Shown here piece by piece: positions 233-2,147 of a stretch of DNA of 58,088 nucleotides. Each line of letters begins with the position of its first letter. Positions within the stretch are counted from its first letter, which is position 1. The translations under genes were made by a program, and so were the position numbers. This stretch comes from Candidatus Desulfatibia profunda (GTDB lineage: Bacteria; Desulfobacterota; Desulfobacteria; Desulfobacterales; UBA11574): contig JACNJH010000207.1 in the NCBI GenBank assembly GCA_014382665.1, positions 1 through 58,088 on the forward strand. Direction: 5' to 3'. A model generated the notes under the pieces. The model was not told the origin of the DNA and made no database searches. It was given only the letters and a program-made list of their open reading frames with translations.

Positions 233-260
233 TTGACAATATAAACTCTAATGATAAACT
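233..260 (+). promoter_or_regulatory. sigma70-type promoter upstream of the structured RNA units and NYN gene
   Basis: TTGACA (233-238), 16-nt spacer, TG-n-TAAACT (255-260, extended -10); predicted start ~266-270, just before unit 1. Confidence 0.6.
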
Positions 261-272
261 TATTAATACTTT

Positions 273-328
273 AGAATACCCTCTGGCGTTGTCCCACCAC
301 AAGGCGTGAGTGGATAAACAACGTCAGA
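273..328 (+). ncRNA. structured RNA unit 1 (AGAATACCC + hairpin)
   Basis: TCTGGCGTTGT pairs with ACAACGTCAGA (one G-U); inner CCAC/GTGG and CAC/GTG stems; homologous to unit 2. Confidence 0.55.
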
Positions 329-351
329 TTAGTATATTAAAAGACAATTTG

Positions 352-413
352 AGAATACCCCATGGCGTTAACCCAACACATAGTAAATGTGAGTTGGGGC
401 CTTGACGTCATGG
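352..413 (+). ncRNA. structured RNA unit 2 (AGAATACCC + hairpin)
   Basis: CCATGGCGTTAA pairs with TTGACGTCATGG (two G-U); inner CCCAA/TTGGG and CACAT/ATGTG; compensatory changes relative to unit 1. Confidence 0.55.
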
Positions 414-420
414 TAGAAAT

Positions 421-458
421 AACAAAAAATCACCAGAATCTGGTGATTTTTTGTTTTT
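421..458 (+). terminator. intrinsic terminator-like hairpin between the RNA units and NYN
   Basis: perfect 17-bp inverted repeat AACAAAAAATCACCAGA / TCTGGTGATTTTTTGTT followed by T run. Confidence 0.75.
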
Positions 459-470
459 GGAGGTGTAAAT

Positions 471-1016
471 ATGGAAAAGGTTTCTGTTTTTATTGATGGG
501 GGCTATCTGGATCATATAATCCAGGATATTGGCAAAAAAGTTGACTATTCAAAGTTGGCAAGGAAATTGTGTGGAAGCGATAATTTTATGCGTGCCTATT
601 ATTATCATTGCCTTCCATACCAAAGCGATCCTCCAACAGAAGAAGAGAAAACTCGCTTTAGTAAAGCAAGCGCTTTTTTTGACCGGCTAAAAAGATTGGA
701 TAGATTCCAGATTCGTTTAGGAAAGTTGGCAAAAAGAGGCAATTATTCAGATGGAAATCCTATACTTATTCAAAAAAGAGTAGATGTTTATCTTGCAACC
801 GATCTTGTAAAATTTAGCGCACGAAAAGGAATGGATCAAGCGGTATTGCTTACCTCTGATAGTGACTACGTCCCCGCAATTGCAGCTTCAAAAGAATTTG
901 GAGTGATTGTAAAATTGGCATATTATGACAATCTTTCTATAAACCAAGAGTTGCTTGATGCATGTGATGAAAGGTTTTCTTTTTCAGCAAGCTTTTTCGA
1001 TGATATTTTAAGATAA
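471..1016 (+). CDS. NYN domain (LabA/DUF88, PIN-like) ribonuclease
   Basis: FIDGGY, QKRVDVYLATD and LTSDSDYVPAI acidic motifs; GGAGGT RBS; AT-rich. Confidence 0.9.
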   Translation: MEKVSVFIDGGYLDHIIQDIGKKVDYSKLARKLCGSDNFMRAYYYHCLPYQSDPPTEEEKTRFSKASAFFDRLKRLDRFQIRLGKLAKRGNYSDGNPILIQKRVDVYLATDLVKFSARKGMDQAVLLTSDSDYVPAIAASKEFGVIVKLAYYDNLSINQELLDACDERFSFSASFFDDILR

Positions 1017-1064: not shown

Positions 1065-1226
1065 TTATTTCCGGCGAACTTCATCCAGCCAGTTGTCTAA
1101 CTTTTGGCGATATTCTGTATAATCGGTTTCCCTGCTGCAATGTTTGCAGGCAACTATATCTAAACCGCCATGCGCGACAATATCAGCCGTGTTACCGCAA
1201 AAGATGCAGACAATCTCCTTACTCAC
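1065..1226 (-). CDS. 53-aa zinc-ribbon protein (not in ORF track)
   Basis: GTG start overlaps IHF stop (GTGAGTAA); MSKEIVCIFCGNTADIVAHGGLDIVACKHCSRETDYTEYRQKLDNWLDEVRRK has two CxxC pairs. Confidence 0.6.
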   Translation of the reverse strand: MSKEIVCIFCGNTADIVAHGGLDIVACKHCSRETDYTEYRQKLDNWLDEVRRK

Positions 1227-1503
1227 CGTTAATCAAGCCTCTTAATTTCCCGGAGCATTTGAATATAACAATCCGCCGCGGCCTAAGCATCATATCATCG
1301 CCGGTGGCGGGATTGCGGCCTTTGCGCTGCTTTTTATCTTTTACGCAGAATTTGCCGAATCTGCTGATCATTACATCCTCCCCGGATGCCAGGGTCTTTT
1401 TCATGATTCCAAGCAGGGTTTCAACCGCTTTGCCGGATTGTTTATCGTCTAATCCGCTATTTTCGCTGATTTCTTCAACAATTTTCGCCTTGGTAAGTGT
1501 CAT
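1219..1503 (-). CDS. ihfA: integration host factor alpha-like / HU family DNA-binding protein
   Basis: MTLTKAKIVE...FGKFCV...RKGRNPATG motifs. Confidence 0.85.
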   Translation of the reverse strand: MTLTKAKIVEEISENSGLDDKQSGKAVETLLGIMKKTLASGEDVMISRFGKFCVKDKKQRKGRNPATGDDMMLRPRRIVIFKCSGKLRGLINGE

Positions 1504-1898: not shown

Positions 1899-2147
1899 TC
1901 ATAGATGTTTTTTAGCAAAGGCCCGGCCTGAATGGGATTTGAGATACTTTTCGAATTTTGCAGCTTTTTCGCGGGAACGAAACCCTATGGCTGTTTCAAT
2001 TTTCCAAGGGCGATATTTGGAGGTGTGAGCAACTTGACCGTTGTTATGGGCTTTAAGTCTGGATTCCAGATTTTTCGTAAGCCCTGTGTAGTGGTGAGAT
2101 TCGTTTGTTTCACTGGCTAAAATGTAAACATAATAAAATTCGTTCAA
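1899..2147 (-). CDS. small standalone GIY-YIG nuclease
   Basis: YYVYIL...HHYTGLT...RLKAHN...FEKYLKSHSGRAF; TTG start. Confidence 0.85.
   Translation of the reverse strand: MNEFYYVYILASETNESHHYTGLTKNLESRLKAHNNGQVAHTSKYRPWKIETAIGFRSREKAAKFEKYLKSHSGRAFAKKHL

Follow-up and report, generated by a model that had tools for sequence, protein, structure and literature searches.

The closest described counterpart of the locus reported here is AbiF/RCd22 of the Clostridioides difficile prophage phi027, in which the abiF RNA motif (RF03085) is paired with an Abi_2 protein; a SigA promoter is followed by two hairpin motifs (33 and 35 nucleotides (nt), 19 nt apart), a terminator, a ribosome binding site (RBS) and the toxin gene (PMC12373285). 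There, the short RNA RCd22 is the main transcript, no processing was seen between its two motifs, and the RNA has two actions: via termination it lowers toxin expression in cis, and in trans it binds the protein directly and so neutralises it (PMC12373285). In this work, we analyzed a locus at positions 233-1016 of contig JACNJH010000207.1 of Candidatus Desulfatibia profunda (the whole stretch of 58,088 nt is referred to as the window). As in AbiF/RCd22, a promoter, two hairpin motifs, a Rho-independent terminator and an RBS precede a protein gene, here one for an NYN (LabA-like, PIN-like fold) nuclease. LabA-like NYN proteins are very common and, to our knowledge, almost none has a known function or substrate. 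The RNA partner described below is strictly linked to one NYN subfamily, covarying and family-specific, and provides a first concrete handle on the function of such proteins. In our reading, the locus would form a type III-like module with AbiF/RCd22 as its nearest counterpart; the RNA encoded at 266-458 would be the dedicated partner of NYN, an excess of this RNA would restrain the nuclease and the terminator would limit its expression; we regard this reading as evenly poised between right and wrong.

The elements of the locus are as follows.

233-260, plus strand: sigma70-type promoter, with TTGACA at 233-238, a 16-nt spacer, TAAACT at 255-260 and a TG before the -10 box (extended -10).

273-281, plus strand: 5' tail of unit 1, single-stranded, AGAAUACCC, unpaired in the fold and holding the conserved AGAAUA word of the family.

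282-328, plus strand: hairpin of unit 1, made of helices P1 (282-292/318-328), P2 (294-297/310-313) and P3 (298-300/306-308), with A309 bulged.

329-351, plus strand: A/U-rich linker between the units, starting with the conserved 3' flank of unit 1, UUAG.

352-359, plus strand: 5' tail of unit 2, AGAAUACC, assigned from the fold and the repeat alignment.

360-413, plus strand: hairpin of unit 2, made of helices P1 (360-371/402-413), P2 (372-377/393-398) and P3 (379-382/388-391).

421-458, plus strand: intrinsic terminator, with a 16-bp stem (421-436/440-455), the loop AAU and a U-run.

459-463, plus strand: Shine-Dalgarno sequence GGAGG, 7 nt before the ATG; GGAG is conserved in the aligned homologous leaders.

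471-1016, plus strand: gene of the NYN nuclease (181 amino acids), Pfam PF01936, with an intact DxD-type acidic site.

The window starts at the contig end, and 232 nt are visible upstream of the promoter. The promoter match alone is weak evidence, because this AT-rich region holds 13 promoter-like sites against 5.7 expected; its -35 TTGAC is invariant across three aligned homologous leaders and was found too in the leaders of contigs L118, L120 and L122. From the sequence we infer a transcription start near 271-273. The public RNA-seq runs searched contain neither the window nor Brevibacillus, and depth was flat along the contigs available from Geobacillus runs. A direct repeat (270-301/349-380) has 81% identity and a start-to-start distance of 79 nt, and each unit consists of single-stranded AGAAUACCC followed by a long three-part hairpin. 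The words AGAATACCC, TGGCGTT, CCCA-N-CACA, GTGAGT and ACGTCA are common to both units, and paired positions change in concert between them, TC/GA corresponding to CA/TG at the base of the stem and GT/AC to AA/TT at its top. Helix P1 of unit 1 holds the family core GGCGUU/AACGUC. The covariance scores are 78.1 bits for unit 1 and 69.4 bits for unit 2 with a model of the long unit (R1), and 27.6 and 23.4 bits, respectively, with a model of the core (R2, see below). The 205-nt leader (266-470) folds with -78.2 kcal/mol (z = -8.2), and 0 of 200 shuffles folded as well. The terminator (-19.3 kcal/mol) is bidirectional in shape through the pairing of its A-tract and U-tract, and a simple terminator scan missed it because the U-tract pairs with the upstream A-tract. 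As the Shine-Dalgarno sequence abuts this U-tract, NYN would be made only from read-through transcripts. A first-pass annotation, prepared from the letters alone, had described the promoter, the two homologous units with their shared words, the covarying pairs at the stem base and top and the terminator between the RNA and the NYN gene; all of them lie where it had placed them and are as it had named them.

Three other interpretations of the region were discarded. A helix between the 3' flank of unit 1 and the AAUAC tail of unit 2, which mimicked covariation by eye (GUAU/AUAC, GGCA/UGCC), folds no better than shuffles in 6 of 6 leaders. A genome-wide repeat was rejected since a whole-genome search found the motif words only at this locus of the source genome, looser matches being at the level of a reversed-pattern control. 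Rfam 15 gave no hairpin match in 266-415 even at E <= 1; the IS128 match falls on the terminator (30.9 bits, cut-off 80), and that to rimP-leader is a chance-level terminator match (24.6 bits, cut-off 47, E 0.53) which touches only the last bases of unit 2.

With regard to the protein, the open reading frame (ORF) 471-1016 matches PF01936 with 62.3 bits (cut-off 24.2), and NYN was the sole Pfam domain found. Residues D9, D105, D111, D130, S131 and D132 are invariant across 38 homologues, the AlphaFold2 model has a predicted local distance difference test score of 95.3, and its sole clear neighbour in the PDB is the LabA-like NYN protein VPA0982 (2qip, E 7e-9). The proposals that the gene encodes an NYN protein with intact acidic residues, and that this nuclease is not ToxN-like, are thus borne out. 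The subfamily has a signature of its own, RAYYYHCLPYQ. PADLOC returned HEC-09 (E 4.5e-7, 27.7 bits, residues 1-142 only) and its NYN model (E 3.3e-6), scores that are too weak to support membership. The source genome (G000) has three further PF01936 matches, on contigs C224, C148 and C165 (best C224:12875-13306, 128.9 bits), and the whole-genome scan found no copy of the RNA motif near them.

The NYN proteins that are 69-78% identical to that of the window come from metagenomes only. All seven contigs of close homologues that were retrieved (L089, L091, L118/L119, L120/L121, L122 and the 5'-truncated L123) keep the leader, with a TTGAC promoter, two long hairpins, the terminator, a Shine-Dalgarno sequence and NYN. 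RNAalifold on six of these leaders recovers both hairpins and the terminator; 12 of 44 pairs change on both sides with pairing kept, and the terminator stem differs wholly in sequence and remains paired in all six. Across contigs, the first units resemble one another and so do the second units, so the duplication predates the clade of the window, and the long-tandem RNA class forms one clade on the NYN tree (support 100/99). On two of these contigs (L118 705-1304, L119 649-1248), the database protein P0004 (199 amino acids) fits only if TGA is read as tryptophan; its 18-residue N-terminal extension probably stems from gene calling under another genetic code, the normal 181-residue frame starting further in.

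We further examined a set of 80 NYN loci, with one genome per species and from more than 10 phyla. The long-unit covariance model gave weak matches upstream of distant NYN homologues, and these correspond to a compact 38-nt element, 5'-AGAAUA-N4-CYGNCGUUC-(4-8-nt loop)-GGAUGNCRG-N2-AG. The core model R2 built on it matches about 45 of the 80 loci, nearly always 50-90 nt before the NYN start and on the same strand. Most of the non-matching loci hold recognisable variants at the same position, such as CCAUCGUUCC...GGCACGGUGGG in Alphaproteobacteria and Acidobacteriota, in which the U.G wobble is replaced by a U-C or U-U mismatch, so that nearly all 80 loci have some version of the motif. Carriers include Planctomycetota, Chloroflexota, Armatimonadota, Gemmatimonadota, Bacillota, Pseudomonadota, Acidobacteriota, Saccharimonadota and Thermodesulfobacteriota, and the AGAAUA word of the 5' tail is conserved across phyla in the family alignments. 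In the lineage of the window, an arm of two helices, P2 and P3, that contains a conserved UGAG has taken the place of the tetraloop, and the unit has been doubled; the ~60-nt units of the window are best described as lineage-specific, enlarged and duplicated copies of the ~38-nt core hairpin. The tandem ~60-nt units that had been noticed at the outset are therefore real in the window and its close relatives, but they do not extend to the family: most relatives have a single ~38-nt unit, and tandem repetition is for this reason not a defining feature.

The comparison of the regions upstream of NYN homologues that had been proposed as a test of the motif gave both conservation and covariation. 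In alignments that were fitted to the model, 95.3% of the cells of the core helix are paired and 7 of its 10 pairs show double changes; 0 of 500 shuffles equalled this result and controls with slid partners collapsed. The stem top is nearly invariant (C-G, G.U, U-A, U.G, C-G), the lower pairs covary freely and the loop tolerates from 4 to more than 30 nt. At two positions, G.U is found in 32 of 42 sequences and U.G in 35 of 37, and these conserved wobbles indicate that the plus-strand RNA is constrained, and not the DNA. This bears directly on an explanation at the DNA level, namely that the inverted repeats, lying just after the promoter as they do, are operator sites for a repressor. On the opposite strand, the G.U and U.G pairs that are conserved here would become A-C mismatches, the compensatory changes keep RNA pairing and the loop varies over the range just given; we consider this explanation barely credible. 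Rfam scans of 20 homologue loci gave nothing at the gathering score, and no meaningful match was obtained for locus L033 at E <= 10. Rfam 15 does not contain the motif, a point that could not be checked when the units were first noticed, nor does the literature searched; the motif is a clean candidate for an RNA database entry.

The order promoter, RNA, terminator and nuclease, which had been read from the window, is also conserved. About 30 distant loci were inspected; in these, 6-8 nt separate the end of a consensus sigma70 promoter from AGAAUA, a spacing which implies that the motif lies at the very 5' end of the transcript (about +1). A terminator follows after 0-24 variable nt in 26 of 30 loci, and then the Shine-Dalgarno sequence and NYN; the energies of these 26 terminators range from -9.5 to -28 kcal/mol, 25 of them being at -14.5 or stronger. 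The number of units varies from one to two and is one at most loci; two directly abutting units of 35-38 nt occur in Gemmatimonadales (L014) and in Beta/Gammaproteobacteria (L030, L039, L022). Promoter, structured RNA, terminator and gene form the classical order of an attenuator, and tandem units recall tandem riboswitches, so the hairpin might control read-through of the terminator by sensing a small molecule or a factor of host or phage origin. However, duplexes that the motif forms with the terminator's 5' arm are no better than those with shuffled arms (for 26 loci, mean z = -0.20, and z is below -1.64 at one of them), and antiterminator pairing is not supported on these grounds. Besides, the variable sequence between hairpin and terminator separates the two, a 10-bp hairpin with a free loop leaves little room for a ligand pocket, and the motif is not always in a leader, being downstream of NYN at six loci and alone at others. 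Such a riboswitch-like or factor-dependent switch seems to us very improbable.

The six loci just mentioned (L034, L077, L038, L027, L043 and L044) belong to one NYN clade of Clostridia/Peptococcaceae/Dethiobacter, in which, at 6 of 6 loci inspected, the motif is found downstream of NYN, at a distance of 60-260 nt from the stop codon. NYN has its own promoter and a short leader there, and the RNA has its own TTGACA-17-TAnAAT promoter and a terminator, followed by convergent genes or nothing; no co-directional gene follows. To judge by this arrangement, the RNA is behaving as a gene of its own. Its presence downstream of NYN or standing alone favours a trans-acting partner over a purely cis-acting leader.

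This layout has to be weighed against self-regulation in cis, by which NYN would cleave or destabilise its own read-through leader and so hold its level constant, the short RNA being a by-product or a competitor. Feedback of ribonucleases through a structured leader is well established, as for RNase III (rnc leader), RNase E (rne 5' untranslated region) and the eukaryotic NYN/PIN-type Regnase-1; at most loci the motif does lie in the NYN leader, and a conserved stem with a variable loop suggests recognition by a protein. Self-regulation leaves unexplained, however, the separate downstream RNA gene of the Clostridia clade and its NYN with a promoter and short leader of its own, as well as the stand-alone RNA copies that keep intact promoters, and under it no strong constitutive terminator would have to stand between hairpin and gene. 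We hold it to be plausible for the upstream layout and, on the whole, unlikely.

The association is also specific. Whole-genome scans with the model gave 1-2 matches per genome at E <= 0.1, located at NYN loci or at a stand-alone RNA copy, with the exception of one weak in-gene match and of four genomes with lower-scoring copies that gave none. Among 147 flanking ORFs there was no conserved protein neighbour, and no Pfam family recurred beyond a handful; the RNA is, as far as these flanks indicate, the sole conserved neighbour of the NYN family. On a maximum-likelihood tree of NYN, the RNA variant classes need 16 changes as compared with 44 for shuffled labels; these classes were set by a crude regular expression and many loci labelled 'none_seen' have covariance model matches, so what is reliable here is the clustering statistic and the clean clades. 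NYN clades mix phyla, the mismatch-U clade for instance comprising Alphaproteobacteria, Acidobacteriota, Gemmatimonadota and Chloroflexota. Clustered RNA classes within phylum-mixed clades indicate that RNA and NYN move and evolve together.

The distribution of the cassette is patchy, and we consider it, from its occurrence in genomes, to be an accessory element. In the family and order of the source genome it was found in 1 of 81 genomes. Among 48 species of Anoxybacillaceae, NYN is intact in 9 and present as C-terminal stubs in 2 (11 of 48 in total), and the RNA model finds 23 copies in 18 species. All 9 intact NYN genes are preceded by the RNA; the 14 further copies lie where NYN is truncated, internally deleted, frameshifted or gone, so that the RNA outlasted at least five truncations or deletions of NYN. 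In L125 and L131, NYN breaks off after 17-24 codons; in L133 and L134 it has lost residues ~9-125 by internal deletion, with a frameshift; it is removed altogether in L126, L127, L128 and L132, and is fused into the next gene in L124. A contig of the public run X23 joins position 1514 of L033 to 1880, skipping 365 nt inside NYN, and this junction is similar to the internal deletion that has become fixed in L133 and L134, from two other genomes of Geobacillus type. The stand-alone copies keep intact promoters, except for the older remnants L129 and L130, which have lost the RNA promoter and bear mutations in the invariant core; it follows from their decay that the RNA does not persist for long after the loss of NYN. 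This asymmetric decay, in which NYN is lost and the RNA kept, looks like that of a toxin and its antidote, as far as the comparison of these genomes can suggest. The loci L124-L134 span the Anoxybacillaceae genomes G003, G097, G102, G104, G111, G113, G120, G126, G137 and G139. In three species of this family, the RNA marks the left edge of a block, conserved to ~97%, that starts with an HKD+Snf2 helicase gene (PADLOC C3a139), and the flank upstream of the block differs completely between the three.

Outside these genomes, a pattern scan of metagenomes listed 80 matches, most of which are chance; 11 reach at least 32 bits, so the covariance model is usable as a detector and the pattern is not. 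Where enough downstream sequence was available, 6 of 10 copies of at least 32 bits have NYN downstream, and the remaining high-scoring ones adjoin an IS200 transposase, a SecB-like gene or a prohead protease gene. The last is on contig L194, where a motif copy (619-658, 36 bits) without NYN lies directly upstream of ORF 741-1814, a weak Caudovirus prohead protease match (Peptidase_S78, E 1.6e-4); this single case may be a phage-borne stand-alone copy. Two more metagenome copies (L195 160-197 and L150 226-263) have a promoter and a following hairpin and no NYN, and in L195 the SecB-like gene lies ~850 nt downstream of the motif. SecB-like chaperones occur in toxin-antitoxin-chaperone systems.

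The surplus of RNA copies in Anoxybacillaceae (23, versus 9 intact NYN genes), the four or five of 10 high-scoring metagenome copies with room downstream that lack NYN, and the single-stranded tails conserved on both sides of the hairpin would also fit an RNA that is itself the working part. It could be a regulator, with the AGAAUA tail as seed and NYN as its maturation or turnover enzyme, or a cofactor or activator through which NYN chooses its targets. Against this, the stand-alone copies of Anoxybacillaceae are visibly decayed RNA-NYN cassettes with NYN stubs remaining, the oldest are losing the RNA promoter and core, and the motif has no spacer-like variable part to act as a guide, its loop tolerating 4 to more than 30 nt. 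We judge a working RNA of this kind to be decidedly improbable.

Taken together, we favour the type III-like module because it accommodates the strength of the promoter, the position of the RNA at +1, the constitutive terminator, the dependence of the nuclease on read-through, the separable RNA gene, co-evolution and the pattern of NYN loss. In such a module, the strong promoter would start transcription at about the AGAAUA of unit 1 and most transcripts would stop at the terminator (421-455), so that free RNA would accumulate in large excess (~190 nt here, ~80-90 nt in single-unit relatives) and the nuclease would be translated from rare read-through transcripts only. The RNA would bind NYN and keep it inactive, like type III RNA antitoxins and AbiF/RCd22; the features recognised are likely to be the CGUUC/GGAUG core of the upper stem, which is invariant and contains the wobbles, and the flanks AGAAUA and AG, which are single-stranded. 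A drop in the supply or stability of the RNA would then free the nuclease. We infer transcription start and stop, RNA-NYN binding, inhibition and nuclease toxicity from the arrangement of the locus and its relatives.

Several observations weigh against this interpretation. First, the lack of NYN genes without the RNA is in part a necessary outcome of the upstream layout, since the sole promoter lies upstream of the RNA. In addition, the NYN subfamily has no homologue in 50,697 phage records, 72,556 plasmids hold only two NYN homologues (~30% identical), and no true copy of the motif was present in IMG/VR, where 23 pattern matches were rejected as phage-borne copies: they are close to a rough estimate of the chance expectation, score 15-27 bits versus 30-52 for true copies, and none has NYN nearby. 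Such scarcity on phages and plasmids is unusual for addiction or abortive-infection modules, and many of the neighbouring genes are plain metabolic ones. Furthermore, most relatives have a single hairpin and not a ToxI-like repeat array. NYN nucleases are metal-dependent hydrolases, unlike ToxN, and the product-bound inhibition of ToxIN therefore need not apply to them. Finally, the literature searched contained no toxic LabA-like NYN protein.

If the RNA does restrain the nuclease, the PIN-like superfamily would join the ToxN-like and AbiF proteins as targets of protein-binding RNA antitoxins, and a simple hairpin would suffice as antitoxin, with neither a repeat array nor a pseudoknot. The natural variants (single, abutting-tandem and enlarged-tandem units, located upstream, downstream or standing alone) would be useful for working out the rules of recognition. 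It is tempting to speculate, with somewhat less than even confidence, that the NYN subfamily and its ~38-nt hairpin constitute a previously undescribed class of RNA-protein toxin-antitoxin systems, with type III logic and a PIN-like toxin, present in many phyla; a single hairpin would be the antidote, the terminator would set the ratio of RNA to nuclease, and the stand-alone copies, one of them by a phage prohead protease gene, would be protective or counter-defence decoys.

The surroundings of the cassette in the window contain the following further features.

1065-1226, minus strand: ORF of 53 amino acids for a zinc-ribbon protein, with a weak, sub-threshold Lar-like match, overlapping the next gene.

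1219-1503, minus strand: gene of an HU/IHF-type DNA-binding protein, convergent with NYN (Pfam E 4.7e-26).

1899-2147, minus strand: small GIY-YIG gene (Pfam E 3.5e-16).

The cassette lies on the 3' side of a transfer-messenger RNA (tmRNA) gene (2713-~3080, minus strand), and tmRNA genes are a usual site of island integration. This position, together with the HU/IHF-type and zinc-ribbon genes, suggests that the cassette belongs to an integrated island which the contig end truncates. Directly after the tmRNA 3' end and up to the GIY-YIG gene, ~4.4 near-identical tandem units of 123 bp occupy 2160-2712, each of which yields the same short ORFs. Elsewhere, the closest homologue adjoins YgjP-like, AAA_25 and HTH_17 genes and another adjoins HicB, and in Anoxybacillaceae the next gene encodes the HKD+Snf2 helicase (PADLOC C3a139, E 2e-91), with a Uma2 nuclease nearby. 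An anti-phage role of NYN and its RNA has at most weak contextual support.

As regards other systems in which a nuclease or toxin is joined to a structured RNA, the locus shares with ToxIN, CptIN and TenpIN the order promoter, RNA unit or units, terminator and endoribonuclease gene (PMC3401426, PMC5086642, PMC8860590, PMC13682666). It further resembles them in the abutting 35-38-nt units of L014, L030, L039 and L022 and in the conserved single-stranded tails that flank a folded core. In contrast to these systems, the nuclease has an NYN/PIN-like and not a ToxN-like fold (Pfam NYN only, best PDB match 2qip), the RNA is a hairpin and not a pseudoknot, and instead of near-identical repeats the units are usually single, the window having two diverged copies (81% over 32 nt). 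The difference from AbiF/RCd22 lies in the protein, which is NYN and not Abi_2/HEPN-like, and in the RNA, neither the window nor the 20 loci scanned giving any RF03085 match. The locus is consequently not a member of the ToxIN, CptIN, TenpIN or abiF families and is similar to them in layout. Its protein shares domain, fold and intact acidic residues with LabA-like NYN proteins (PF01936; Vibrio VPA0982, PDB 2qip) and is set apart from the others by its signature and by an RNA partner; the literature searched reports no RNA partner for LabA-like proteins and no link of NYN to type III systems. The HEC-09 and NYN candidate defence proteins of PADLOC are similar to it only weakly, and the subfamily differs from them in that it was not found on phages and is practically absent from plasmids. 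Two recent large surveys of intergenic elements, one of them the PhoH2 preprint (0 occurrences), make no mention of NYN. In that preprint, clades of PhoH2 (PIN_4-PhoH) carry lineage-specific structured RNAs 5' or 3' of the gene (bioRxiv 10.64898/2026.10.21.760802, Fig. S14). The present system likewise joins a PIN-like nuclease to a structured RNA on either side of its gene, with another protein family and other RNAs.

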